Shown: in pieces, positions 1-12,292 of the stretch
Position numbering within the stretch: position 1 is the first letter of the stretch
Layout of the letters: the number at the start of each line of letters is the position of its first letter
Origin: a virus
Taxonomy: Duplodnaviria; Heunggongvirae; Uroviricota; Caudoviricetes
Virus record (IMG/VR): IMGVR_UViG_2547132278_000008
Coordinates: 1 to 12,292 of that record
Strand: one strand, 5' to 3'
DNA: 12,292 bases
Position numbers and translations under genes: made by a program
Notes under the pieces: model-generated
Told to the model about the DNA's origin: nothing
Seen by the model: only the letters and a program-made list of their open reading frames with translations
Databases searched by the model: none

Positions 1-769
<769 letters not shown>

Positions 770-774
770 AACAA

Positions 775-814
775 AAGCCTGCTTTAAAGAGAGTTTGAAG
801 CAGGCTTTCTTTTA
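775..814 (+). terminator. Rho-independent terminator after the exonuclease remnant
   Basis: 10-bp stem AAGCCTGCTT (775-784) pairs with AAGCAGGCTT (799-808), followed by TCTTTT. Confidence 0.6.
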
Positions 815-929
815 AAGAACAGTCGCCTTTCAATCATTTCCTGCCTGTATTTAATACTTTTCCGCCTGATAGGTTTAGTCAAAATGCAGCCATCGAAACG
901 CAAATGTAACCAAACAGAAGGAGACTTAC

Positions 930-1739
930 ATGAGTTCGGTTGAAAATGTAATGACAAATGATGATCTGGACGAGCTGACAGCCATGTTGCAATCACTTGA
1001 TGAACCAGTAAAAAAAGCTGCACAGGTTGAAAATACTGATGATATTGACGATCTGCTGCTCGGCCTAGATGCTGGCGTAGCCATGAGTTCTGATGATGTT
1101 GCCGAAGAACTGTTCAATGAAGAAAAAGCAGGTGATTTCAGCTCTACTTTAAATGAGTTGGAGTTAGCGCATGAGCCTATAAACGTAATTAACGCTGAAA
1201 GTGTTGAAGCTGCCGAAAACGAGCCAGAACAATTGGGATTTATTGAGGTTGAAGAGTGTGTTGAGGTTAATGATGAATTAAAAGTTCAACAGTCAAATGA
1301 TAGCAATACAAATAAAAAAGCTCGTACTGCAAGAGGTCCTCGTTTTACTTTAAGTGATAAAGATGATTCGTTTTTCAATAAAGCGGGCTTAGAAAAAGAT
1401 ATTTTCTTAGACGCTTACGATAACGCGCCTGTCAAAGCAAAGGATAAGATATTAAACCTTCTTAATTGGTTTAGCGGAGGTCCAGATATTAGTGTTTACA
1501 CGGTAATTTCCATGAGACACCTTCTCACAGAAAAGAAGGCTACAAGTAATAGTATTAAGATTGCTTTAATGAGCAATCCAGAAAAACCGTATCCGCTTAA
1601 CACTGCGTCAACTCAGGCTGGGCAAATGATGGCTGTATTTCCAGCGACAGGAATTGCCGTTAGAGACGGTGGAAATCTAACATTGAACGAAGAATCACCG
1701 ATCGTTAAGAAGTTTGTCGCGGAGTACACTATTGGATGA
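930..1739 (+). CDS. Hypothetical protein with a strongly acidic N-terminal half (269 aa); candidate DNA-mimic or anti-restriction protein
   Basis: ATG at 930 with GGAG 8 nt upstream. The first ~125 residues hold roughly 35 Asp/Glu against ~4 Lys by hand count; the C-terminal half is mixed-charge. No recognised motif. Confidence 0.6.
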   Translation: MSSVENVMTNDDLDELTAMLQSLDEPVKKAAQVENTDDIDDLLLGLDAGVAMSSDDVAEELFNEEKAGDFSSTLNELELAHEPINVINAESVEAAENEPEQLGFIEVEECVEVNDELKVQQSNDSNTNKKARTARGPRFTLSDKDDSFFNKAGLEKDIFLDAYDNAPVKAKDKILNLLNWFSGGPDISVYTVISMRHLLTEKKATSNSIKIALMSNPEKPYPLNTASTQAGQMMAVFPATGIAVRDGGNLTLNEESPIVKKFVAEYTIG

Positions 1740-1815
1740 CGTTCCCCTACTTAAAATAAAGCCCATAGAGAGCTTTATAGTACTGGGTAAGCCAATCACA
1801 TACCCAGCACCACAA

Positions 1816-1864
1816 AAACGCGCCAGAGAGCTTCTCGTTTGCATTTCTGGCGCGTTTTATTTGA
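1816..1864 (+). terminator. Rho-independent terminator
   Basis: 12-bp stem AAACGCGCCAGA (1816-1827) pairs with TCTGGCGCGTTT (1846-1857), followed by TTTTATTT. Confidence 0.55.
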
Positions 1865-1922
1865 TTGCCAGACATAAAATCAAATGCAAAAATAGGTATA
1901 TACTTACCTATCGAGAAAGAAG

Positions 1923-2516
1923 ATGATTGCAGCCGAAAAAATCAAACAGCGAAAGCGCGACAACTCTCTTCGTGACCTCTGGAGAACACCTGACTGGCTG
2001 TTTTCTGCCATTCAACGTTATCTTGGAGTGACATTTGATGTTGACGTTGCCTGCAACAAGGACAATGCAAAGCTGCCTAATTTCATAGGCGTTGAGCGTG
2101 ATGCTTTGAAATCTGAATGGGGACAGCCAGGTACAATTGCCTTCCTCAATCCACCCTACTCCAAAATCTACCCCTGGATTGATGCGGCTATACGTGAGCA
2201 GGCTCGCGGAGTTACAACAGTGATGCTAATTCCTCAATCCCTAGATACAAAGTGGTATGAGCGTGCAACAGAGTGTGCGAATGAGACGATTATTCTGTCT
2301 GGTGGCCGCGTAGCGTTTGTCGAGCCTGACGTAAATCTGGGTCAGGTAGAAGTAAACATCAACCCAGGTGGCAGTATGCTCGTTGTTTTTCGAGGATTCT
2401 GTCAGGACGCTGGGCACTCTATAAGCAAGATCCCTTTGGACGTCATGAAAAGTCTGGGAGGGTATGATCCTGCGAATGTGATCAGGAAAAAAAGACCATC
2501 AAAGAAGGCTGCTTAG
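1923..2516 (+). CDS. Phage-type DNA N6-adenine methyltransferase (small Dam family, 197 aa)
   Basis: Motif IV FLNPPYS is present, and the WRTPDWLF N-terminal signature and ~200 aa size match the small phage Dam family from memory. An inverted repeat ATAGGTA...TACCTAT (1893-1912) lies just upstream of the start. Confidence 0.8.
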   Translation: MIAAEKIKQRKRDNSLRDLWRTPDWLFSAIQRYLGVTFDVDVACNKDNAKLPNFIGVERDALKSEWGQPGTIAFLNPPYSKIYPWIDAAIREQARGVTTVMLIPQSLDTKWYERATECANETIILSGGRVAFVEPDVNLGQVEVNINPGGSMLVVFRGFCQDAGHSISKIPLDVMKSLGGYDPANVIRKKRPSKKAA

Positions 2517-2537
2517 TTTGTTCTGGCGTCTGTAATT

Positions 2538-2602
2538 AGCCTGCTTCTGTATATATAAATAACCACATATTAATTATTAATATACGGAAGCAGGCTGTTT
2601 TG
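2538..2602 (+). terminator. Long-loop hairpin with T-tract (terminator-like) after the methyltransferase
   Basis: AGCCTGCTTC (2538-2547) pairs with GAAGCAGGCT (2587-2596), then GTTTTG. The loop is 39 nt and AT-rich. The stem core is the same as in the 775-808 terminator. Confidence 0.4.
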
Positions 2603-2701
2603 TATCAGAGACTCCAGACCTGAACATCACTACAGAATCCACTAGAACCCCTTCCCAGACGCTTTAAAATCGATTTTATGAACCACTTTAAGGAAACCAA
2701 C

Positions 2702-2932
2702 ATGTCATACCCGACTAATGTCGTTGCGCTCGTAGAGAGCGATTTTCTGGCCCAGGCTCGTGAAATGATGAAAGATCGTGAGCAGGCTTTCAACTTGTAC
2801 GAATGGGCAATTAAGTGCTTGCATCTTGGCGAGCATCGCGAACTTGTTGAACAGCTTTTAGGTGAGTTGATCAATGAGGTGTTTGCCTTGAATGTTCAAC
2901 TACATGGTAGAGAAAATAATCAATCACAATGA
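2702..2932 (+). CDS. Hypothetical small protein (76 aa; alternative start at 2678)
   Basis: ATG at 2702 preceded by AAGGA (2690-2694). Translation MSYPTNVVALVESDFLAQAREMMKDREQAFNLYEWAIK... has no recognised motif. Confidence 0.4.
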   Translation: MSYPTNVVALVESDFLAQAREMMKDREQAFNLYEWAIKCLHLGEHRELVEQLLGELINEVFALNVQLHGRENNQSQ

Positions 2933-3514
2933 TAGATAAGTACAAACTATTCATAAAGTGAATTGTAAGTGCTAAGATCTGATAGTTTCCAGTCGTAGAC
3001 TGGAGACTCGACCTGATGGGTGGGGGTAAGCGTCACTGGCGTCAGGTTTAAAAAAGCTCACTACCAGCGTAGAACTGGTGCCGTTTAGGTGTCGGGGAAG
3101 GGGGAACCAAAGTGAGCAGAGACAAGGGTCACTTTATGATTGTCGAGTCTGGGGTGTTTCGAGAGGTTGAATCCAGTACTCCCCTTCATAAAGTGTGGGA
3201 AGATCTCGGTTCTGGGGTGCTGTCATCCATAACTTCCCAAGTCTAAGCTGGCAGTAGACTTAGACCATAACTTTTCAGGTTATGAAACGACCAGGTTGGT
3301 GAGAGATTTTTATACTCACCTCCCTGGGAGAGTATTACCTGAAAAGACAACCTCTCACTTCGTTCGAGGTGAACTTCACTCACTTCGTTCGTTCAGTTCA
3401 GGTTTATAAAAACCTGTTCTGGGAAGTAATTTGTTTATTTTAATAATTATTAACACGCACGCGTGTGCGCACGCGCGAGGAAAAATCGGCGCGGCGCTTG
3501 ATTCAGGAGTTTAT
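2933..3514. other. ORF-free, repeat-rich and hairpin-rich intergenic region; candidate structured ncRNA, origin or regulatory hub
   Basis: No ORF of 60 aa or more on either strand. Hairpins include CCAGTC gta GACTGG (2989-3003), GGTGAG...CTCACC (3298-3320) and AGGTTT ataa AAACCT (3401-3416). Direct repeats include TCTGGGGTG at 3138-3146 and 3211-3219, and CACTTCGTTCG at 3356-3366 and 3381-3391. Confidence 0.3.
3453..3477. repeat. 25-nt perfectly alternating purine-pyrimidine tract (Z-DNA-prone) with central CACGCGTG palindrome
   Basis: ACACGCACGCGTGTGCGCACGCGCG read directly; lies about 40 bp upstream of the RNase HI start codon. Confidence 0.9.
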
Positions 3515-4105
3515 ATGACGACGAAGACACCAGCCCGATCGCAAGCAAAAACTCGCAAAAAAGACAAAAACAAAAATTCTCCCCGCACCAATCCCACAAC
3601 GCCTGTCGTAGAGTTCAATCCCCAGCTTAAAACCGTGAAAATCTTTAGTGATGGCTCTTGCCTTAAAAATCCGGGTGGCCCGGGCGGTTACGGTATCGTT
3701 CTCCAGTATCGTGGTGAGGAACGCGAGTTCTCAGATGGTTTTCATAGCACCACCAATAACCGCATGGAGATGATGGGGGCACTTATCGGGCTGGAGCGTT
3801 TGAAATATCCATGCAACGTTATTTTGCACTCTGATAGCCAGTATCTGAAAAACGGCATGACACAGTGGATGAAATGGTGGAAACGCAATGGATGGATGAC
3901 TTCTGACAAAAAACCGGTAAAGAATGTTGATCTGTGGAAGCGTCTGGATGAGGCCGCAAGTCGACATAATGTTCGCTGGAAGTGGGTTAAAGGTCACGCC
4001 GGGCATCGTGAAAATGAAATATGTGATCGACTCGCGAAGATCGCAGCTTTTTCAGCAGCAGATATGCCTCACAAGAAAGATATTGGTTTTGTTTATAACA
4101 AATAG
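3515..4105 (+). CDS. Ribonuclease HI paralog (196 aa) with a ~45-aa basic N-terminal extension
   Basis: AGGAG at 3505-3509 precedes ATG 3515. The core aligns by eye to E. coli RNase HI with all catalytic residues present: IFSDGSC (D), NNRMEMMGA (E), HSDSQY (D), [18 protein letters not shown] (H, D). The extension is Lys/Arg/Pro/Thr-rich. Confidence 0.85.
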
Positions 4106-4202
4106 TAAGTAAGTGTTTACCTATCATTTTAAATCATGTATCTTATCGGCGTCAGGATGACAATGTGTCGGTAAGACACAGTTCCAGGATGGAACGAGAA
4201 AG

Positions 4203-4224
4203 GCGGCTGGCAATCGCCAGCCGC
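4203..4224 (+). terminator. GC-rich hairpin (possible terminator or 5'UTR structure)
   Basis: GCGGCTGGC aatc GCCAGCCGC forms a 9-bp stem; the downstream tail CTCTTTCT is only weakly U-rich. Confidence 0.35.
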
Positions 4225-4253
4225 AACTCTTTCTGACACTGGATGGAGTCCAC

Positions 4254-4748
4254 ATGGCACGTCAAACCTATTTCACTTCTGTAACTAAACGTCCTCGTTC
4301 TTTACGTCAAATTTTGGCCGAATTATTTAGCGGTCGTGTTATGTCACGTCTTGATGAACTAGAGACTACCGTTCGGTTGCTGAATGAACGTTTAGATAAT
4401 CAAGCGTCAGTTGTTGCGAACGTGGGGGCGATTGTTGCCTCTGGTTCTTCACGCGAAGCGAAAAGTACACGGCCTTTAGTGAAGGAGAAAAACAACAAGG
4501 ACAGTTCGAATGGAAAATTTTCAAAGAAAGAGGCTGAAACCAATGGCCTACGTTCTCATTATAGTTTCACTGGCGACGGTAGCCGTTCCAGCCGGCCAGA
4601 GCCTTTTGATGCCGGGTTCATCCATCACCACACCTCCGTCGACGACAATTACCACCACTCCAGTAGAGCGTCCTGTCACTCTGGATGGGATGACGGTGGA
4701 TGCGATACCTCAAGTTCATCCGGTTACTCAGGATCATGCTGTGACTAA
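4254..4748 (+). CDS. Hypothetical protein; N-terminal ~85 aa look coding, C-terminal part is doubtful (overlapped by a +1 frame ORF)
   Basis: GGAG at 4245-4248 precedes ATG 4254. The N-terminus is coiled-coil-like, but after about residue 90 the translation becomes Ser/His/Cys/Gly-rich low complexity. Confidence 0.35.
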   Translation: MARQTYFTSVTKRPRSLRQILAELFSGRVMSRLDELETTVRLLNERLDNQASVVANVGAIVASGSSREAKSTRPLVKEKNNKDSSNGKFSKKEAETNGLRSHYSFTGDGSRSSRPEPFDAGFIHHHTSVDDNYHHSSRASCHSGWDDGGCDTSSSSGYSGSCCD

Positions 4749-4761
4749 GGCGGTTGTATGA
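4510..4761 (+). CDS. Small putative secreted or membrane-anchored Thr/Pro-rich protein (83 aa)
   Basis: AAGGA at 4496-4500 precedes ATG 4510. It has a signal-peptide-like N-terminus (MENFQRKRLKPMAYVLIIVSLATVAVPAGQS) and a TTPPSTTITTTP tract, and its stop overlaps the next start as ATGA. Confidence 0.4.
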   Translation: MENFQRKRLKPMAYVLIIVSLATVAVPAGQSLLMPGSSITTPPSTTITTTPVERPVTLDGMTVDAIPQVHPVTQDHAVTKAVV

Positions 4762-4946
4762 ACTGGTTTTCAAATCACTTTGGAAAAATTTGGCTGGCAA
4801 TTCTTGCCCTCATGGCCGCCGGTTGGGTATCGAACATTATAAAACTTGTTTGCTCTGGCGATCTCCAGTTTCAGGCTGGCATGACCTTGGCTCGTGTAGT
4901 TGGGATTTTTGTTTTTCCAGTCGGTTCGGTACTTGGTTATTTCTGA
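4758..4946 (+). CDS. Small membrane protein (62 aa, two predicted transmembrane helices)
   Basis: ATG 4758 overlaps the preceding stop (ATGA). Hydrophobic segments IWLAILALMAAGWV and VVGIFVFPVGSVLGYF. Confidence 0.45.
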   Translation: MNWFSNHFGKIWLAILALMAAGWVSNIIKLVCSGDLQFQAGMTLARVVGIFVFPVGSVLGYF

Positions 4947-5001
4947 CGGCTGTTAGTGCATATGCATTGACCATCTTTGCGTAAGCAATTTATGTAATTA
5001 G

Positions 5002-5020
5002 AAAACAACTTGTTTTGACA
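5002..5020. promoter_or_regulatory. Perfect palindromic operator-like site AAAACAA-C-TTGTTTT overlapping a consensus TTGACA hexamer
   Basis: Read directly at 5002-5016; TTGACA at 5015-5020. Sits 23 nt upstream of ATG 5040. A possible -35/-10 pair (TTGACC 4967-4972, TATGTA 4991-4996) lies upstream, but the promoter assignment is uncertain. Confidence 0.45.
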
Positions 5021-5039
5021 AATAATAAAAGGAAAACAC

Positions 5040-5465
5040 ATGTTAGGTTTCTTCAAAAAGAAAACTCGTAAAGCTGTTATCGAAGTCAAAAAAATGGAGA
5101 ACCGTGATGCGGTTGAGGCCACCGTGTGGGGCGCGTACATGATCTCCTATGCCGACGGCACATGTGACGCAAAAGAAATTGCCATTCTTGAGAAGACAAT
5201 TGCAGCTCTGCCTGCGTTTTCTCCGTTTGCTGGTGAAATTGCCCAAATGAGCGCCAATATCCGTGCTCGTTACGAAGCGTCCCCTCGTTCTGCTAATGCA
5301 CAGGCTATTCGTGAGCTGTCTGATATTGCGGGTACTCCAGAGGCGGTCGATGTTCTGTGTCTGTGCCTTGATATTGCCGATCAGGACGGCATTGGTGAAC
5401 AAGAAGAGCAGGCACTGAAAAAGATCGCCCAGGCGCTTCAGTTGTCACTGGATGCTTATCTCTAA
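5040..5465 (+). CDS. TerB-like (tellurite-resistance TerB family) protein, 141 aa
   Basis: AAGGA at 5029-5033 precedes ATG 5040. Two TerB-type repeats with acidic Asp-Gly motifs (ISYADGTCDAKEIAILEK and CLDIADQDGIGEQEEQALKKI) match the TerB architecture from memory. Confidence 0.7.
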   Translation: MLGFFKKKTRKAVIEVKKMENRDAVEATVWGAYMISYADGTCDAKEIAILEKTIAALPAFSPFAGEIAQMSANIRARYEASPRSANAQAIRELSDIAGTPEAVDVLCLCLDIADQDGIGEQEEQALKKIAQALQLSLDAYL

Positions 5466-5623
5466 TGCTTGAGAGATTCCGGCTTGTGATCGTCATTGCT
5501 CTTCTGGTGATGGCGGTGTTGGTGGATTTTACGGGAAAGATGATGTCTGTCATTTCTGATGGCGTCCTCATTGGTTTGGCGATCTACTTCGCTTATCCGT
5601 TAGTTCGTAAAGCAAAGTGTTAA
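5465..5623 (+). CDS. Unannotated small membrane protein (52 aa), translationally coupled to the TerB-like gene
   Basis: TAATG stop/start overlap at 5463-5467. Hand translation gives MLERFRLVIVIALLVMAVLVDFTGKMMSVISDGVLIGLAIYFAYPLVRKAKC with two hydrophobic segments. It is below the 60-aa threshold of the ORF track. Confidence 0.5.
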   Translation: MLERFRLVIVIALLVMAVLVDFTGKMMSVISDGVLIGLAIYFAYPLVRKAKC

Positions 5624-5625
5624 TG

Positions 5626-5653
5626 ACAAGGGCCATTTGGCCCTTGTGTTTCG
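5626..5653 (+). terminator. Rho-independent terminator after the TerB-like/membrane pair
   Basis: ACAAGGGCC attt GGCCCTTGT forms a 9-bp stem, then GTTTCG. Confidence 0.5.
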
Positions 5654-5730
5654 TTGACCGAAATAGAGAGTTTGCACCTTTACGTTTAGCTTGCTCCCCT
5701 TTTATGCCACATCACAATAAAGCCAATAAG

Positions 5731-5745
5731 AAAACAACTTGTTTA
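5731..5745. promoter_or_regulatory. Second copy of the operator-like palindrome (AAAACAACTTGTTTA)
   Basis: Matches the 5002-5016 site at 14 of 15 positions within a shared AGAAAACAACTTGTTT context; sits 17 nt upstream of ATG 5763. Confidence 0.45.
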
Positions 5746-5762
5746 AGCATTAAGGAAAACAC

Positions 5763-6329
5763 ATGTGCGAGAAATGCAAAGCAATAGCTGATGAACAAAA
5801 CGCCCTATTCGAAGAAATGGATGCTAATGAACTTGTCAAAATGTTAGGCATTGTTCGGGGAACAGAAGACGTTTCTATATTTGAGAGACTGTTTACAGTA
5901 CTTAATTTTAATTCCACCTTTGAAGAGCCAACTCAGGTTGTAGCTTTGGCACACCATTTCGGTGTTCATTATCTTGCCGAAAAAGAGCGCGCTAATAAGT
6001 TGCAGGCGACTTTGGATATGGTGAGCGAGACTCAAGGAACCCATGACGGTAACAATAGTGAGACGATTATTGCCAGCAAAGATCGTGAAATTGCCGGACT
6101 TAAGTCTTCTCTAACGATGTTGATGTCTGCAATCAATCTTATGTCTTCTAAAGCGGGATATAAAATGCCATCACTAAACAGTGACGATCCAATGGCCGTT
6201 CGCCAGCTTTTGGGAGCAATGGCCGACCAGCTTGATGATACGAAAAGTCGGCTTGAAGACATGATGCGGGAGCTTACGCATCGCCACGACTTGAATAAGC
6301 AACCGCACAAAACGCAATACGCACTCTAA
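5763..6329 (+). CDS. Hypothetical protein (188 aa)
   Basis: AAGGA at 5752-5756 precedes ATG 5763. No recognised motif. The gene has its own operator-like site upstream and a terminator downstream. Confidence 0.6.
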   Translation: MCEKCKAIADEQNALFEEMDANELVKMLGIVRGTEDVSIFERLFTVLNFNSTFEEPTQVVALAHHFGVHYLAEKERANKLQATLDMVSETQGTHDGNNSETIIASKDREIAGLKSSLTMLMSAINLMSSKAGYKMPSLNSDDPMAVRQLLGAMADQLDDTKSRLEDMMRELTHRHDLNKQPHKTQYAL

Positions 6330-6346
6330 TACTGCACCAGTCGACA

Positions 6347-6368
6347 GGGGGCGAAAGCCCCCATTTTT
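6347..6368 (+). terminator. Rho-independent terminator with GAAA tetraloop
   Basis: GGGGGC gaaa GCCCCC followed by ATTTTT. Confidence 0.7.
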
Positions 6369-6427
6369 ACGCCTTAAATCTGCTGTAACGCCTATGAATG
6401 CAGCTTTTATGCCTTTTTAAGTTTGCG

Positions 6428-6472
6428 ATAATTACACCAATCAGAAAACAAATTATTTAATGGTGTAATTAT
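6428..6472. promoter_or_regulatory. 12-bp perfect inverted repeat embracing a degenerate operator motif and the start codon of the 6471 gene
   Basis: ATAATTACACCA (6428-6439) pairs with TGGTGTAATTAT (6461-6472). The 21-nt spacer holds AAAACAAaTTATTTA (6445-6459), and the A and T of ATG 6471 lie inside the right arm. Confidence 0.45.
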
Positions 6473-8156
6473 GAATACAGCCCTTTCCATCATCGACGAT
6501 GCCAGCTCAAACACGGCTATCGACTATCGTCAGGAAATGAATGTCATCCACGAAATCGTGGCCGAGTGCGAGAAAGAGATCGCCTTCATGTATCAGGTAC
6601 ACGACTTCGTTTATGGCGACGAACGCCACAACATGATTAATCGCCTGCTGAGACTAAACCATCGACCAGATGAAGATCGCTCGCGTTTAAATCGAGGTTG
6701 GTTGGATAAAGTCGATCTGGAATGGGTGAAACAGAATATTTGGGCCGAGTACTGGAGGAAGGTCACGGACATGACTAACGTTTTGCTGATCATGCCAGCT
6801 TCCCGTCGAGATGAGTGGCGCGAGCAGTTTATAGAGGGCAAACAGGAAGTCATCAAAACTGACAGAACCGGCTGCCAGATGAAGGTTAAAGAGTTCGTTG
6901 GTGTACCGGAGTTCAAAGCAGAAACGGTCATACCCACGATGCTTAATTTGCTGAATGACAGGCACAAATATCTCTCTGAGCGCGTGTATGGCTTGTTTAA
7001 GGCGCTGAGTCCTGCGCACAAGACAAATAAGACAAACGGTTTCAGCGAGCGTCTGATAATCGCTGACTGCATTTCTGATTTCTGGCGGGACAGCGTTAGC
7101 GTGAACTATCGCAAAGAGGACTACATCGACGATCTGCGTGTCTTGCTTCATTTCTTCGCGCACAAAGAATTTATTACCATCAACCGCACTGCTGAGGTGC
7201 TATCAGCTGCGTATCGGGCAAACGACTGCCAGACCGGTGACTGGATGAACGTCGATGGAAATCTGATGCGCGTGAAGATGTTCAAGAACGGCAACGTTCA
7301 CTTTGAAATACATCCTGACGTGGCCTGGAAGTTGAATGAGGTGCTGGCTTACAGTATGCCTGCTGCAATCCCCGCGCCATGCCGAACTGCGCCAAAAACA
7401 CGGGCACCAAAGCAGTTCGGGTTAATCCAGAAGACGATCTCCGTGCCGGTTCGCACTGCGCTTCGTGACGGGCGATTGAGCAAAGACAAAGGCGTATGGT
7501 ACTTCTCTGATTCAGCTCTCCAGAAGTCGCAGGTGGAAGAGCTTGAGCGCACACTGAGCTTCATTGGCGGCGTGCAGGAGAAAAAGCACTGGCAGTTCCC
7601 GTATGACATCGGCCATACGCTAAATACGATTGTGGCTACCGGTTTAATACCGGATACAAAATCACACCAGTTCTACCCTACCCCACGCTTGATTGCTGAG
7701 TACGTTGCAAGAGCCACTGAATTGAAGCCTGGTGAGAAGCTGTTGGAGCCTCAAGCCGGACGTGGGGATCTTCTGGCCTATATAAACGCCGATCTGGAAG
7801 ATGTTACCTGCATAGAAATCGCACCTCTCTTCGCTGATATCCTGCGTGGAAAAGGGTATACGAACACGATTTGCTGCGACTTCATAAAGTGGTCTGAGGA
7901 CAACGCAGGTTATCAGTTCGACAAAATCGTTATGAACCCGCCGTACTCGCTTGGTCGTCATAGAGAGCACACGCTGGCTGCGCTGGGGCATCTGAAAGTC
8001 GGCGGGCGTCTTGTAGCAGTATTGCCGGGCACTGCGCCAATACTGGACTGGATGACGATGGATAATTACGTTTATGCCAGAGGGAAGTCGTTTACCAACG
8101 AGTTTGAAGACACAGGGATCACAGTCAGCGTATACGTTTTCAAACGCGTTAAATGA
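6471..8156 (+). CDS. Large protein (561 aa): N-terminal ~400 aa of unknown function fused to a C-terminal N6-adenine methyltransferase domain
   Basis: A motif I-like segment (LLEPQAGRGDLLAYI) and motif IV (VMNPPYS) sit in the last ~150 residues. The N-terminal region has no motif I recognise. Confidence 0.75.
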   Translation: MNTALSIIDDASSNTAIDYRQEMNVIHEIVAECEKEIAFMYQVHDFVYGDERHNMINRLLRLNHRPDEDRSRLNRGWLDKVDLEWVKQNIWAEYWRKVTDMTNVLLIMPASRRDEWREQFIEGKQEVIKTDRTGCQMKVKEFVGVPEFKAETVIPTMLNLLNDRHKYLSERVYGLFKALSPAHKTNKTNGFSERLIIADCISDFWRDSVSVNYRKEDYIDDLRVLLHFFAHKEFITINRTAEVLSAAYRANDCQTGDWMNVDGNLMRVKMFKNGNVHFEIHPDVAWKLNEVLAYSMPAAIPAPCRTAPKTRAPKQFGLIQKTISVPVRTALRDGRLSKDKGVWYFSDSALQKSQVEELERTLSFIGGVQEKKHWQFPYDIGHTLNTIVATGLIPDTKSHQFYPTPRLIAEYVARATELKPGEKLLEPQAGRGDLLAYINADLEDVTCIEIAPLFADILRGKGYTNTICCDFIKWSEDNAGYQFDKIVMNPPYSLGRHREHTLAALGHLKVGGRLVAVLPGTAPILDWMTMDNYVYARGKSFTNEFEDTGITVSVYVFKRVK

Positions 8157-8217
8157 TAGGTAAATACTTACTTAATTTATGTAAGAATGTAGTTACTAAA
8201 CGATAAGAGAAAAACAC

Positions 8218-8922
8218 ATGAGCAACCTCCAGTTAGAGCATTTTAACGTCACAGGCCATTCCGATTTTCCTTTCAAGTTTACATTGAAAGGTTATGCAGA
8301 GGATGCGGTAGGCCAGATCATTATTGATAAAGGCATCGTTAAGTTTGAGGGGAATTTTGATGAATCCGCGAAAACATTCATAGACTTCGTTGCCAAACGT
8401 TGGAGCGAGCAATGGAAAGACCTGGAAAAGCGCGCTAGTGAGTTTGATCGGTTCATGGATGCAATGGATACAGCAAAAGAGGCTCTTGCTGCCGGGACTC
8501 CGTTAGATCTGGAGTCACTTTTCAACGGCGAAGTGGCCTCTGCGATGTTCGCCACCATGTTCGCGGGTGAGTTCGTCCGCAGCGGTGCCAAAAACTACCT
8601 TGAGCTGGATTACAACGTCCCTGCAATTGGCGATTTCGTCGTTACCATCCAACGCAAAGAAGGTAAGACGCCAGGTGAACGCGTCGCAGAGCTTGAGGCC
8701 GTTGTGGATCAGCGTAACGGAGAGTGTGACCGTTTGATCAACGAGCTTCATGCACTTCGGGAAGAAAGAATATGCGCGGGTAGTAATACACGTAATGCAG
8801 CGGATATCTACTTCCAGTTAGTTGAGGAATGCCAGATTCCACCAGGTGGCTCTCTTGTCGATTACGTCAGACATTTAATGGCGGAAGTTAACTCCAGCCA
8901 TAAAGATGGTGAGGTGCGCTGA
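8218..8922 (+). CDS. Hypothetical protein (234 aa), downstream of the methyltransferase fusion with no intervening terminator
   Basis: Leader ...AAGAGAAAAACACATG. Long ORF with a clean shadow pattern; no recognised motif. Confidence 0.6.
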   Translation: MSNLQLEHFNVTGHSDFPFKFTLKGYAEDAVGQIIIDKGIVKFEGNFDESAKTFIDFVAKRWSEQWKDLEKRASEFDRFMDAMDTAKEALAAGTPLDLESLFNGEVASAMFATMFAGEFVRSGAKNYLELDYNVPAIGDFVVTIQRKEGKTPGERVAELEAVVDQRNGECDRLINELHALREERICAGSNTRNAADIYFQLVEECQIPPGGSLVDYVRHLMAEVNSSHKDGEVR

Positions 8923-9302
8923 TGTTTGGCATTGATGCACAGCGTATAGCAGCTTTTGCAAAAAGTCCTCTTGATAATCCCTTGTCTCGTAGTGAGCAAA
9001 TGGCGCTGGCAAGGCTTTTTCTTCACATTCAAAAACAGGCAGACGTTTTCAATAACATGCCTGATCAACCTATTCTGGATGGTCACATCCAGATGGTCAT
9101 TAACAGTCATGAGAAAGGCTGGGCTGCAATCGTCCCCTGCACAATTACATACAAGTTGGCGAAAGAGGTTCAAGAGTTTCGAAAAGTCAGCGTCGAATCA
9201 GAGTCTACCAAAGCCGCAATAAACACTCTTATTCGCATGGGGTTCACATGGGACGGTGGAGCTTACTGGCAAGCACCTCAACCCATTTTATCCGACAATT
9301 AG
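8922..9302 (+). CDS. Hypothetical protein (126 aa), translationally coupled to the 8218 gene
   Basis: TGATG stop/start overlap at 8920-8924. No recognised motif. Confidence 0.55.
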   Translation: MFGIDAQRIAAFAKSPLDNPLSRSEQMALARLFLHIQKQADVFNNMPDQPILDGHIQMVINSHEKGWAAIVPCTITYKLAKEVQEFRKVSVESESTKAAINTLIRMGFTWDGGAYWQAPQPILSDN

Positions 9303-9332
9303 GCGCTACAAATCCTTCTGCATGAATAAATA

Positions 9333-9367
9333 AAGGCCATAAGTTATGGCCTTAAATAAATTGTTTT
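9333..9367 (+). terminator. Hairpin with downstream T-tract (terminator-like); tail carries a degenerate operator half-site
   Basis: AAGGCCATAA g TTATGGCCTT (9333-9353), then AAATAAATTGTTTT (9354-9367). Confidence 0.45.
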
Positions 9368-9440
9368 CTACCTTTTCTTATTTGTGAAAATAAACCAGCA
9401 CTTGGTAGTGCTTATGTAACAGCAAAGAAGAGAAAAACAC

Positions 9441-9941
9441 ATGAGTAACAAAATCGAAAATCCCGTAGTTCTCATTCACAAGCGCGAGAACCACGACTCC
9501 TATGCGGTGGCGATCACCAATGGGAGTCACGATTTTTACGATGGCCTGCTAATGGCCTCAGTGTCGCCTGATGAGGCAGACAACTCTTTTGCCGTCTTCG
9601 CTATGGTTGGTTACTACATGGCTGCCGAAATTGAGAAGTTGCGGGCGCAAAGAGACGCATTAGCGGCGGAGAATGCAGCCCTGAAAGAATCTGAGCGAGC
9701 ATTCGATGCGATGTGTGCCGAGGAACACGGAGATAATTGGGTTAGCGAATTAACGGAGACTCCAGCCACCGATACTTTTCTGGCTGAAGTACGTGCGCAG
9801 GGCGTGGATATGGCTCGTAACGCGATGATTGATTTTGTTGATGGTGAAGTTGGGCCAAACAAGAACGTTCCGGGGCTGATTAGAGGCGCAGAGATATGCG
9901 TAAGTATTGCTGAACAGCTTCGTAAAGGAGTCATCCAGTGA
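9441..9941 (+). CDS. Hypothetical phage protein (166 aa), first gene of a six-gene coupled operon
   Basis: Leader ...GAAGAGAAAAACACATG. Contains a coiled-coil-like AEIEKLRAQRDALAAENAALKE segment. Confidence 0.6.
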   Translation: MSNKIENPVVLIHKRENHDSYAVAITNGSHDFYDGLLMASVSPDEADNSFAVFAMVGYYMAAEIEKLRAQRDALAAENAALKESERAFDAMCAEEHGDNWVSELTETPATDTFLAEVRAQGVDMARNAMIDFVDGEVGPNKNVPGLIRGAEICVSIAEQLRKGVIQ

Positions 9942-10405
9942 GCAAGATTGACTATCAGGCACTGCGTGAAAAGGCAGAGAAAGCAACGTGTGGTAAGTGG
10001 TCGCTCGAATATGGAGAGAGCCGATTTGATGGTGATGATGCGCTAATTCATCGTGAAGTTGCTGGATATATTCCTATTTGCAGAATTGAAGGAGCGCATC
10101 CTGAAAGCGGTTTCGATGAAGATTTCCAGATGGAACAGCAGGCCAATGCTGAATTCATCGCCGCAGCCAGTCCAGCTACCGTGCTGGCACTACTGGATGA
10201 GATCAACGCATTAGAGGAAACGCGTATCAACGATGTTTGCCGTATTGCGGAACTAACAAAACAACTGGAGTTGGCAAAATCAAAACTCAACGAGCAGCGT
10301 GAGTATTACGAGGGCGTTATCTCGGATGGAAGTAAGCGCATAGCCGCTCTTCTTCGCAAGGACAATCTTGCCAGCGCCACGAACATTGAAGGTGAAAGAA
10401 AATGA
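9938..10405 (+). CDS. Ead/Ea22-like phage protein (155 aa)
   Basis: GTG start with AAGGAG at 9925-9930; GTGA overlap with the upstream stop. The N-terminal [18 protein letters not shown] and later [23 protein letters not shown] resemble lambdoid Ea22-like proteins from memory. Confidence 0.6.
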
Positions 10406-10725
10406 CCACATCGCACTCTGCTATTACCCAAGAAAAAGCCTTCAACATACTCGAACGACTAGAGACGCTCGCTACGGAGGAGGATATATCCCCGGAGAAA
10501 CTGGTTGAGTTCAGCCGTGTGATATTGCGTCGCAAGAACGATATGGAGCGGCTGACATCTGGCGCTCCATCCTTATCAGTCAGGCGAACACTTTGTTGCA
10601 GCTTCTGCAACAAATCCCAGTACGCCGTCAAAAAGTTAATTGCTGGGGACGCCGTTTTCATCTGCGACGAGTGTGTGGATGTGTGCAACAGAATTATCCG
10701 GGGAGAGAAAGAGGGATCAGCATGA
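10402..10725 (+). CDS. Small protein with a C-terminal ClpX-type C4 zinc-finger domain (107 aa)
   Basis: ATGA overlap at 10402-10405. [35 protein letters not shown] aligns closely to the ClpX N-terminal zinc-binding domain ([34 protein letters not shown]). Confidence 0.65.
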
Positions 10726-11252
10726 AATTTTCCAAATTTTCTGAGTTGGTGAATCGTATTTTGTCCAACAACCACAGCCATCGTCGCGATATGGATGTAA
10801 CGATCGTTGTTCATTCGCCTGGTCGCATCGGTTCAACACCATCAGTTGAGGTTCAGTCAATTCAGGCGGGTTTTGATTGGGATGCCGGGCAAGTGATGAT
10901 TTTTCCAGCACAGCCACTGACCACGCTAACACCAGAGCAGGTTGCTGATATCACTGATAGTGTGCGCAAAGGTCAGTCTTGGCACGCGTATCAGGAATAC
11001 AAGAAGCATAAAGAGCAGTTGGAAAAATTGTCGATGGAGTTGGAAGCCGCTAAACAGCGGGAAAAAGATCTGTTTATGGAAAATGTTCGACTTAAGTCAG
11101 GTATAGCCGGTCTGATACACCTCGGTATTCGATATGCGGATGTTGAGGTCATGAAAATTGCTGGAGATGCCCAGCTTTCTACTCCATGCACTGACAGCAT
11201 CATAAACAGCATTGCAGCAGGCATTTTCACCAAAGAGGGGGCAGCACGATGA
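10722..11252 (+). CDS. Hypothetical protein (176 aa)
   Basis: ATG 10722 overlaps the upstream stop (ATGA), with GAGGG 6 nt upstream. The track ORF 10593..11252 is an in-frame 5' extension that overlaps the previous gene. Confidence 0.55.
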
Positions 11253-11434
11253 GAACACTAGAGGTTCGCGCTGAAGACGTAATCCCTGGTGATGTGCTCA
11301 TAACATCTAAAGGTCAACAATGTGCGGTTAAATCTTTTTGGATGGAAAATGACAAAGTGACTCTGTTCGGTACGGATGGTTCCGAAACTGATTATGACTA
11401 CGACGAATTGCTTGTTGTTGAGAGAGCTGCCTAA
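11249..11434 (+). CDS. Hypothetical small protein (61 aa)
   Basis: ATGA overlap at 11249-11252 with AGAGGGGG upstream. Confidence 0.45.
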   Translation: MRTLEVRAEDVIPGDVLITSKGQQCAVKSFWMENDKVTLFGTDGSETDYDYDELLVVERAA

Positions 11435-11940
11435 TGACCACCGTTAACAATAAGAAATGCTACCCAAGCGAGAAATATCTTAATGAGCTGATCACCAACA
11501 TTGAGTTTGCTGCAAGGGCACCAGTTGAAGTCGTGAGAGCGATTGCAGCAGAGCTACAGAAGCACCGTAAGGCCTATGCCAATACAGCCGCATCTAAGGA
11601 TGGTTGGATAAGCTGTAGTGAGCGAATGCCTGTAATTGGCGAGCTAAATTGGAGAACTAGTTTTCCTTTACTGGTTATGTGTGAGATCGGCGTTATACCT
11701 GCTTATTACGGCTTTGTGAGCGTTAATGGTGATAGGCATTATGGCTTTATGGAGAGTCTTAAATACGGAGACGATAACGGCAACCATCCTCAAACTAATG
11801 AATATGGTCTGATTAGCAATGTCACACACTGGATGCCACTACCAGAACGCCGCAGGAGTCGAACAGTGAATAATGCAGAGTTATTTCAGAAAATATGTAA
11901 GCGTCAACGGAGCACCGTATTGACGCTTATTTATTGGTGA
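11434..11940 (+). CDS. DUF551-like phage protein; last ~14 codons and stop are supplied by the inserted IS66 terminus (3'-disrupted)
   Basis: TAATG overlap at 11432-11436. GWISCSERMP and THWMPLPE motifs are typical of DUF551 from memory. The IS-like terminus begins at 11897, inside the ORF. Confidence 0.55.
   Translation: MTTVNNKKCYPSEKYLNELITNIEFAARAPVEVVRAIAAELQKHRKAYANTAASKDGWISCSERMPVIGELNWRTSFPLLVMCEIGVIPAYYGFVSVNGDRHYGFMESLKYGDDNGNHPQTNEYGLISNVTHWMPLPERRRSRTVNNAELFQKICKRQRSTVLTLIYW
11897..11929. repeat. Terminal inverted repeat of the IS66-family element (starts GTAAGCG), containing an internal 9-bp palindrome
   Basis: GTAAGCGTCAACGGAGCACCGTATTGACGCTTA; IS66-family ends typically begin 5'-GTAA. 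Internal arms AAGCGTCAA and TTGACGCTT. Confidence 0.55.
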
Positions 11941-12292
11941 GTACTACGTTCCATGGCAGGAGTTCGTCAACACGGTTGGAGGGCCATTCCGGCAGTACGC
12001 TCAGAATATGGCGCAGATACGCTTCCGGATCGATACCGTTCAGTCGGCAGGTGCCGATCAGCCCGTACAGCAGTGCTCCACGCTCGCCGCCGTGATCGCT
12101 ACCGAAGAACACGTAATTTTTCTTTCCGAGACAGACTGCACGAAGCGCTCTTTCCGCTGTGTTATTGTCCACCTCCGCCAGACCGTCATCACTGTAATAA
12201 CAGAGGGCGTCCCACTGATTCAGTACATAGCTGAACGCTTCGCCCAGTCTGGATTTTTTCGACAGCGTGCCATTCTTCTCCACCATCCATTC
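11927..12292 (-). CDS. IS66-family transposase (TnpC-like), C-terminal part; 5' end outside window
   Basis: The - strand translation ...NNTAERALRAVCLGKKNYVFFGSDHGGERGALLYGLIGTCRLNGIDPEAYLRHILSVLPEWPSNRVDELLPWNVVLTNK matches the conserved IS66 transposase C-terminus from memory. Confidence 0.8.
   Translation of the reverse strand, partial: EWMVEKNGTLSKKSRLGEAFSYVLNQWDALCYYSDDGLAEVDNNTAERALRAVCLGKKNYVFFGSDHGGERGALLYGLIGTCRLNGIDPEAYLRHILSVLPEWPSNRVDELLPWNVVLTNK

Follow-up and report, generated by a model that had tools for sequence, protein, structure and literature searches.

The window analysed here, the whole stretch of 12,292 nucleotides that forms positions 1 to 12,292 of IMG/VR record IMGVR_UViG_2547132278_000008, belongs to an SSU5-like phage-plasmid. 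It is 96–97% identical to the Escherichia phages Cyrano (pLF82), CMS-2020a and PhiR41_1 and 88% identical to Salmonella phage SSU5, and the leader considered below recurs in PLSDB on about 146 plasmids from E. coli or Shigella with lengths of roughly 110 kb. The gene that follows this leader encodes a 561-residue product with Pfam DUF4942 at residues 144–295 (E 2e-20), a match to PHROG 6263 ('DNA methyltransferase') across its full length and weak class-I SAM methyltransferase signals at residues ~400–520, so that the methyltransferase label given to it in an earlier note, made from the sequence alone, is a reasonable one. An HTH-type Pfam domain, which would bear on autoregulation by an N-terminal DNA-binding domain, was not found in residues 1–143. 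The features of the leader, and related elements elsewhere in the window, are as follows.

5000–5015, plus strand: palindromic box, copy 2, within the leader of a TerB/TciA-like gene (start 5040).
5729–5744, plus strand: box, copy 3, within the leader of a 188-aa gene (start 5763).
6347–6368, plus strand: intrinsic terminator of the upstream 188-aa gene, GGGGGCGAAAGCCCCC (stem 6347–6362) followed by a T-run, called by a terminator scan.
6404–6418, plus strand: upstream block CTTTTATGCCTTTTT, −35-like with a poor match to TTGACA, also present before other copies of the same module in Cyrano and SSU5.
6424–6432, plus strand: extended −10-like element TGcGATAAT, whose last five bases are the first five of the left arm.
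6428–6439, plus strand: left arm ATAATTACACCA, corresponding to the discriminator, preceded by the tail of the −10-like element and closing with the putative transcription start (A 6439, range 6438–6441).
6443–6458, plus strand: box AGAAAACAAATTATTT, a slightly degenerate copy of AGAAAACAAnTTGTTT and a candidate operator at about +5 to +20.
6460–6468, plus strand: mini-ORF ATG GTG TAA, read from the sequence, stopping 2 nt before the main ATG.
6461–6472, plus strand: right arm TGGTGTAATTAT, found by sequence inspection and the repeat finder, corresponding to a Shine–Dalgarno-like GGTG (6462–6465) separated by 5 nt from the AT that opens the start codon.
6471–8156, plus strand: DUF4942 gene with a C-terminal methyltransferase-like region, 561 aa, ATG start (Pfam, PHROG and SAM-methyltransferase signals).
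9354–9369, minus strand: fourth copy of the box, inverted, upstream of a −10-like element TGtGAAAAT and before a gene starting at 9441.

The earlier note had described a perfect 12-bp inverted repeat with a 21-nt spacer that encloses the start codon, and this description is accurate: a repeat finder run on the window pairs ATAATTACACCA with TGGTGTAATTAT at 12 of 12 positions, and the ATG at 6471 contributes its A and T as the final two bases of the right arm. Of 300 shuffles of the window that preserved dinucleotides, 2.3% contained a perfect inverted repeat of 12 bp or more whose arms lay no further than 30 nt apart, a mean of 0.023 repeats per window. When positions 6420–6490 are folded as RNA, the predicted minimum-free-energy structure is exactly the 12-bp hairpin (−12.4 kcal/mol, z = −2.5). 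Its stem spans GGTG together with the first two bases of the AUG. Shuffles of this segment reached an equally good fold in 3 of 200 cases. Several familiar roles for such a stem were considered and rejected. It is A+U-rich, has no U-run, continues from the right arm into GAAUACAGCC and was negative in the terminator scan, which excludes a terminator or attenuator; a perfect 12-bp stem of −12 to −19 kcal/mol would not be expected to melt near 37–42 °C, as an RNA thermometer should; and it is too short for an RNase III site. Rfam covariance models searched over the window gave no match at the gathering threshold, the sole match in the leader being a spurious snoR9 (16 bits against a gathering score of 90). 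Two other inverted repeats in the window have a terminator-like appearance and are intergenic: a perfect 13-bp repeat at 1815–1858 (AAAACGCGCCAGA/TCTGGCGCGTTTT) after the gene ending at 1739, and a 17-bp repeat of 94% complementarity at 2538–2596 (AGCCTGCTTCTGTATAT/ATATACGGAAGCAGGCT) downstream of the adenine-methyltransferase gene, which ends at 2516.

The left arm is not a sequence peculiar to this leader. It falls within a promoter-like module consisting of TTTTATGCCTT, ~9 nt, TGnGATAAT, (T/A)ACACCA, 3 nt and the box AGAAAACAAnTTGTTT. Besides the window copy (6404–6458), this module is found in Cyrano at 93120–93177, 95755–95813, 96240–96298, 97895–97952 and 98380–98437 and in SSU5 at 82420–82480, 88325–88382, 92125–92181, 93665–93725 and 94480–94537; it precedes many unrelated small genes and is conserved between E. 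coli and Salmonella phage-plasmids. In six paralogous Cyrano modules the −10 element stands at a fixed 10–11 nt before the box. Left-arm sequence occurs singly in other Cyrano modules of this kind: that at 97922 holds the identical 12-mer ATAATTACACCA and that at 95783 holds ATAATAACACCA. Alignment of the modules and their recurrence thus identify the left arm as the −10 tail and discriminator of a recurrent promoter-like element. Among 29 distinct leaders of the DUF4942 gene, the motif TGn(G/A)A(T/A)AAT is held in nearly all (the exceptions being one GAAAAC and one GAAGAT), and the sequence upstream of the −10 element varies widely. Applying the usual distance of 7 ± 1 nt past the −10 element places the probable transcription start at ~6439, three or four bases ahead of the box. 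A simple σ70 scan of positions 6100–6700 on both strands called no promoter, a result that we attribute to the poor −35. The strong terminator directly upstream implies that the gene needs a promoter of its own within the window. A search of the literature on SSU5-type promoters or operators found nothing.

The spacer between the arms holds the second component of the module. The window contains four copies of the box against 0.8 expected, and with up to one mismatch allowed Cyrano has 16 and the first 100 kb of SSU5 has 18; shuffled genomes (30 shuffles per genome) gave none. The copies are nearly all intergenic and lie 12–70 nt upstream of genes such as those for terminase, parA, helicase, cobT and nrdB, and a full-text literature search for the motif returned no paper that contains it. 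The earlier note had also read the 12-bp repeat, as DNA, as a large dyad site. No second paired copy of that dyad occurs in the window or in the 108-kb Cyrano genome, and from its sequence the recurrent, operator-like dyad at this locus is the AAACAAnTTGTTT box within the spacer rather than the 12-bp arms. We regard AGAAAACAAnTTGTTT as a candidate operator, used genome-wide and positioned at about +5 of the recurrent promoter-like module. The outer repeat was rejected as an extension of the box palindrome, the two centres being 2 bp apart (6450 and 6452).

The resemblance of the two arms might also be taken to mean that the right arm, read on the minus strand as cATAATTACACCA, TTA and AATAATTTGTTT, mimics a −10 element, discriminator and box, so that RNA polymerase bound there in the opposing direction could block access to the sense promoter or make a short antisense transcript. 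The sequence resemblance is all that speaks for such a mirror promoter; the minus strand has neither a TG extension nor a −35-like block, and the promoter scan was negative on both strands. We give this idea almost no weight.

The right arm corresponds to the translation initiation region. GGTG is the only Shine–Dalgarno-like motif ahead of the start codon, and TGGTG is invariant in 23 of 23 aligned leaders. It is an unusual Shine–Dalgarno sequence for this genome, in which the other genes of the module family carry GGAG or AGGA. Four other genes in the window are preceded by a near-identical initiation cassette A(A/G)GGAAAACACATG or AGAGAAAAACACATG (~5026–5042, ~5749–5765, ~8204–8220 and ~9427–9443), and the DUF4942 gene has TGGTGTAATTATG in its place. 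A start-like (A/G)TGGTG is retained in all 23 aligned leaders. The mini-ORF that it opens here takes the form (A/G)TG GTG NNN NNA TGA in other lineages, where it overlaps the main start as ATGA, an arrangement that may point to translational coupling to the main gene.

Predicted accessibility of this region depends strongly on the left arm. With both arms present, the mean unpaired probability of the initiation region is 0.24 for the window type of leader (type A) and 0.05 for the Cyrano type (type B); in RNA lacking the left arm it is predicted to be 0.64 and 0.63, respectively. Controls in which the upstream sequence was shuffled were equally occluded in a fraction of 0.05 for type A and 0.005 for type B. 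Thus, the earlier proposal that the RNA sequesters the AUG and a weak ribosome-binding site is supported by these predictions for RNA that includes both arms, but probably fails for the gene's own transcript, which probably begins at about 6439 and would lack the left arm. Fold-back of the promoter onto the ribosome-binding site is not general in the module family, as 10 of 13 leaders tested were unremarkable. In cross-pairing and upstream-shuffle controls only the DUF4942 leaders stand out, with Cyrano 98422 borderline; a possible second case at Cyrano 97937 (CACTGCG/CGCAGTG) was discarded, as it is not conserved in SSU5.

We compared 73 homologous leaders, 29 of them distinct, drawn from IMG/VR, GTDB genomes and phage records; 23 distinct leaders were aligned for pair tests. 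A perfect dyad is restricted to two E. coli leader lineages. Type A, that of the window, has ATAATTACACCA/TGGTGTAATTAT. Type B, that of Cyrano, has ATAATTGCACCA/TGGTGCAATTAT and extends inward to 16 bp (ATAATTGCACCATTAA/TTAATGGTGCAATTAT), with a predicted fold of about −19 kcal/mol. Two independent records (L075 and plasmid NZ_CP083480) have a further variant, ATAATAGCACCA/TGGTGCTATTAT, in which both members of one type B pair are changed. The three perfect variants can be written as TA/TA, TG/CA and AG/CT, of which AG/CT represents a true two-sided change. Strong-stem leaders also show one-sided arm changes (CACTA, CATCA and ACGCCA), and all three leave a G·U pair. The spacing between the arms is 20, 21 or 22 bp across the leaders, or 12 bp when the Cyrano-type extension is counted.

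Outside these E. coli lineages the pairing fades. The SSU5, Klebsiella and Kluyvera relatives have only CACCA/TGGTG and scattered pairs (−2 to −7 kcal/mol), and the rest of the family shows 7–9 of 12 pairs, 5–6 of them contiguous, which is about the level of chance once the register is allowed to vary. Over the 23 aligned leaders, 81.9% of cells are paired against 81.0% in shuffled alignments (39 of 500 shuffles as high), the covariation score was reached by 72 of 500 shuffles, and RNAalifold retained four pairs at −0.48 kcal/mol. These pair and covariation tests exclude a hairpin conserved across the family, and with it the view of the dyad as a conserved control structure; pairing is maintained inside the E. 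coli lineages only. Within a lineage the arms are no more conserved than the spacer. A scan of metagenomes with the loose pattern TGGTGNNNNNATGAATACAGC gave 120 loci, of which five were true relatives, and no new arm variants.

We also note an inverse relation across lineages, reflecting one or two evolutionary events only, in which a perfect outer repeat of 12–16 bp accompanies a degenerate box (TTATTT in type A, ATCACTT in type B) and a perfect box goes with a weak outer repeat.

The variation among leaders bears directly on two alternative readings of the repeat. The first is a DNA operator, in which a dimeric or looping protein would bind the two 12-bp half-sites and repress the promoter and the start of the gene. 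The symmetry of the dyad is exact and its left half-site overlaps the −10 element, a classic position for a repressor. In addition, CYRAN_90, the Cyrano copy of the gene, is at background in the LF82 lysogen despite its degenerate box. A protein that recognizes paired half-sites would, however, be expected to have others, and neither a further dyad nor a further paired half-site occurs in the window or in Cyrano's 108 kb. The variable spacing of 20–22 bp, the 2-bp offset of the dyad from the centre of the box, the absence of pairing between the half-sites in most relatives and the natural C-to-T variants, which lose DNA symmetry but retain RNA pairing, all argue against this reading, and we consider it very improbable.

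The second alternative places the hairpin in the gene's own mRNA: transcription would start upstream of 6428 and translation would be blocked until a trans-acting factor or processing opened the stem. This would accommodate the hairpin as the minimum-free-energy fold of the region, and it gains from the poor −35 of the proposed promoter and from the indirect placement of the start at ~6439. On the other hand, the best −10 (TGcGATAAT) overlaps the left arm within a module that keeps it at a fixed distance from the box, and the block between the terminator and TGcGATAAT contains no better promoter element as judged by sequence and by the σ70 scan. The stem is missing in most relatives of the gene, and the leader matches no known cis-regulatory RNA family. 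A start upstream of the repeat therefore seems unlikely, though less so than an operator.

The neighbourhood of the gene differs between the two E. coli leader types. In the window, the terminator at 6347–6368 limits read-through into the leader. The Cyrano-type leader lacks this terminator; two extra genes, CYRAN_88 ('outer membrane protein') and CYRAN_89, sit between the 188-aa gene and the DUF4942 gene, and the region that holds them (Cyrano L001 6634–7600, against window 6330–6430) substitutes for the terminator and the upstream half of the leader. Per-gene RNA-seq values for the LF82 lysogen place the entire block CYRAN_85–94 at background (5–13 FPKM), with ~11 FPKM for CYRAN_89 and ~8 for CYRAN_90, compared with 96 for a putative repressor. 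Silence in LF82 is thus a property of the region and not special control of CYRAN_90, and the tight control of the gene that the earlier note had read from the repeat finds no backing in these data. Nor is there support for its suggestion that the product is harmful when unregulated, as natural copies of the gene are interrupted or frameshifted in several elements.

A cargo insertion splits the DUF4942/methyltransferase gene in about a dozen relatives (L066–L077 and L062–L064), in which the leader repeat is still perfect. The split falls after residue ~157, with residues ~158–260 lost (for example, L069 3001–6433 and L064 19–3906), and one end of the cargo holds a type I restriction HsdR (965 aa), the other an LmuB/SMC-like ORF with IS21 IstA/IstB. 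In plasmid NZ_CP083480 (L205) the gene is frameshifted, again with a perfect leader repeat. Close to the 5′ end of the gene, the window has two adjacent copies of the heptamer CTATCGA (6517–6530), and the frameshift in NZ_CP083480 stems from two more units (+14 nt, L205 ~205–240); this tandem may be a slippage-prone site.

The persistence of a perfect repeat ahead of broken genes (split in L069, frameshifted in L205) is one of several observations that would be explained if the repeat were a functionless quasi-palindrome. According to this explanation, CACCA and ATAAT of the promoter were by chance partly complementary to the GGTG motif and ATTATG of the initiation region, and in one E. coli sublineage template switching during replication copied arm onto arm, so that the partial complementarity was perfected and kept without selection. 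The confinement of the perfect dyad to two closely related leader lineages, with pairing elsewhere at about chance, is as expected, as is the finding that within a lineage the arms are no better conserved than the spacer. The direction of change is also suggestive. The left half of type B differs from the family consensus at four positions (6, 7, 13 and 14), each difference being toward the complement of the right half, and the right half is unchanged from that of weak-stem relatives such as L038 and L053; the palindrome has grown inward, overwriting the box. Against a neutral origin, all three one-sided changes belong to the pair-keeping (G·U) half of transitions, for which chance would give about 4% by a rough estimate, and TGGTG is invariant as well as being an unusual Shine–Dalgarno sequence. 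A hairpin of −12 to −19 kcal/mol over the initiation region, moreover, cannot be neutral for an RNA that contains it. We judge a purely mutational repeat to be the main rival explanation and a serious possibility, though clearly less likely than not. A templated origin and a function need not exclude one another, as the former could precede functional retention.

The explanation that we prefer, at a little short of an even chance, is that the repeat constitutes a lineage-specific translational lock with the promoter inside the hairpin. In this model, the gene has an extended −10 promoter of its own, of which the left arm supplies the −10 tail and discriminator together with the probable start site. 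The gene's own transcript, starting at about 6439, would carry the right arm only, leaving the initiation region open and translatable. RNA derived from upstream would hold both arms, would close over GGTG and the AUG as a hairpin of 12 bp, or of 16 bp in Cyrano-type leaders (−12 to −19 kcal/mol), and should be essentially untranslatable. Such RNA could arise by read-through past the 6347–6362 terminator in the window and, in the Cyrano type, from the two inserted genes, which lack a strong terminator. The repeat would thereby uncouple translation of the methyltransferase gene from read-through transcription.

Several observations argue for the lock: (i) the repeat is perfect and is the predicted fold of the region; (ii) the left arm belongs to a recurrent promoter-like module; (iii) the upstream terminator implies a promoter of the gene's own in the window; (iv) the initiation region is predicted to be open without the left arm and closed with it, beyond what is seen in upstream-shuffled controls; (v) pairing is kept by compensatory and G·U changes inside the E. 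coli lineages; (vi) GGTG is an unusual Shine–Dalgarno sequence for this genome and (vii) there is a precedent in phage T4. Our confidence is not higher because the device is absent from most of the family, because occlusion is not a general property of the module, because the direction of change fits a purely mutational origin and because the repeat stays perfect where the gene is broken. The silence of the σ70 scan counts against the lock as well, as does the terminator that already limits read-through in the window.

Taking the module and the repeat together suggests a broader proposal, in which a reusable promoter cassette with a palindromic operator at about +5 runs much of the non-structural gene set in SSU5-like phage-plasmids and, in an E. 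coli sublineage, the methyltransferase copy of this cassette evolved a promoter-embedded lock, apparently as the local operator decayed, and keeps it by compensatory change. We advance this combined scheme tentatively, as one that is somewhat less likely than not. If the lock works, a phage-plasmid would be shielding a DNA-modifying enzyme against transcription that strays in from adjacent or recently inserted genes, and a device known from T4 and insertion sequences would be extended to another type of element, with its birth traceable in natural variants; it would be the first description of a promoter-in-hairpin device in the style of T4 e or IS10 from a temperate phage-plasmid. Should templated mutation account for the repeat, it is ordinary. 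The regulon of modules and boxes, of which the literature searched contained no description, is the more general result and perhaps the more useful in practice, as it may offer a handle on the lysis–lysogeny regulon of widespread, clinically relevant phage-plasmids of E. coli, Salmonella and Klebsiella.

Several known systems provide useful comparisons. For the box, as distinct from the 12-bp repeat, the closest analogue is found in P1, where operators for the C1 repressor are dispersed. Like those operators, the box is a short motif present at many promoters across a phage-plasmid of roughly 100 kb. It differs in sequence and in being palindromic, the P1 C1 operator being asymmetric.

For the origin of the repeat, the relevant comparison is with the quasi-palindromes that reportedly act as hotspots of templated mutation in E. 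coli, as in work of Ripley and of Lovett. As at such hotspots, clustered changes in one arm would have turned an imperfect repeat into a perfect one, to judge here from the direction of substitution. Unlike a lock, quasi-palindrome templating is a mutational process and not a regulatory device.

For the proposed function, occlusion of a ribosome-binding site by a stem in the same RNA has a precedent in IS200 (PMC3196728), and the phage T4 genes e, soc, 49 and I-TevI have late promoters placed in the 5′ strand of an inhibitory hairpin, such that early read-through transcripts are silent and late transcripts are translated (PMC3014915). As in those T4 genes, the stem described here is predicted to bury the Shine–Dalgarno sequence and/or the AUG, a putative promoter element lies in its 5′ arm and the gene belongs to a phage and stands in a co-directional array. 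The two differ in that the T4 late promoter is TATAAATA and depends on gp55, whereas the present promoter-like module would be of the σ70 type with an extended −10; furthermore, the stem here is found in one sublineage of the family only, and the host element is a temperate phage-plasmid.

Insertion sequences reportedly use a similar arrangement, with fold-back inhibition in IS10/Tn10 and protection of IS50 from external promoters said to have been described by Davis, Simons and Kleckner in 1985, Krebs and Reznikoff in 1986 and Kleckner in 1990. The present gene is a DUF4942/methyltransferase gene in a phage-plasmid array rather than a transposase gene at an IS end, and, unlike IS10, it has no evident antisense RNA partner; it would share the logic of these elements and is not a member of their class. 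As in IS10 and IS50, RNA reading through from outside would include sequence from ahead of the native start that pairs with the ribosome-binding site and AUG, and the native transcript would escape.
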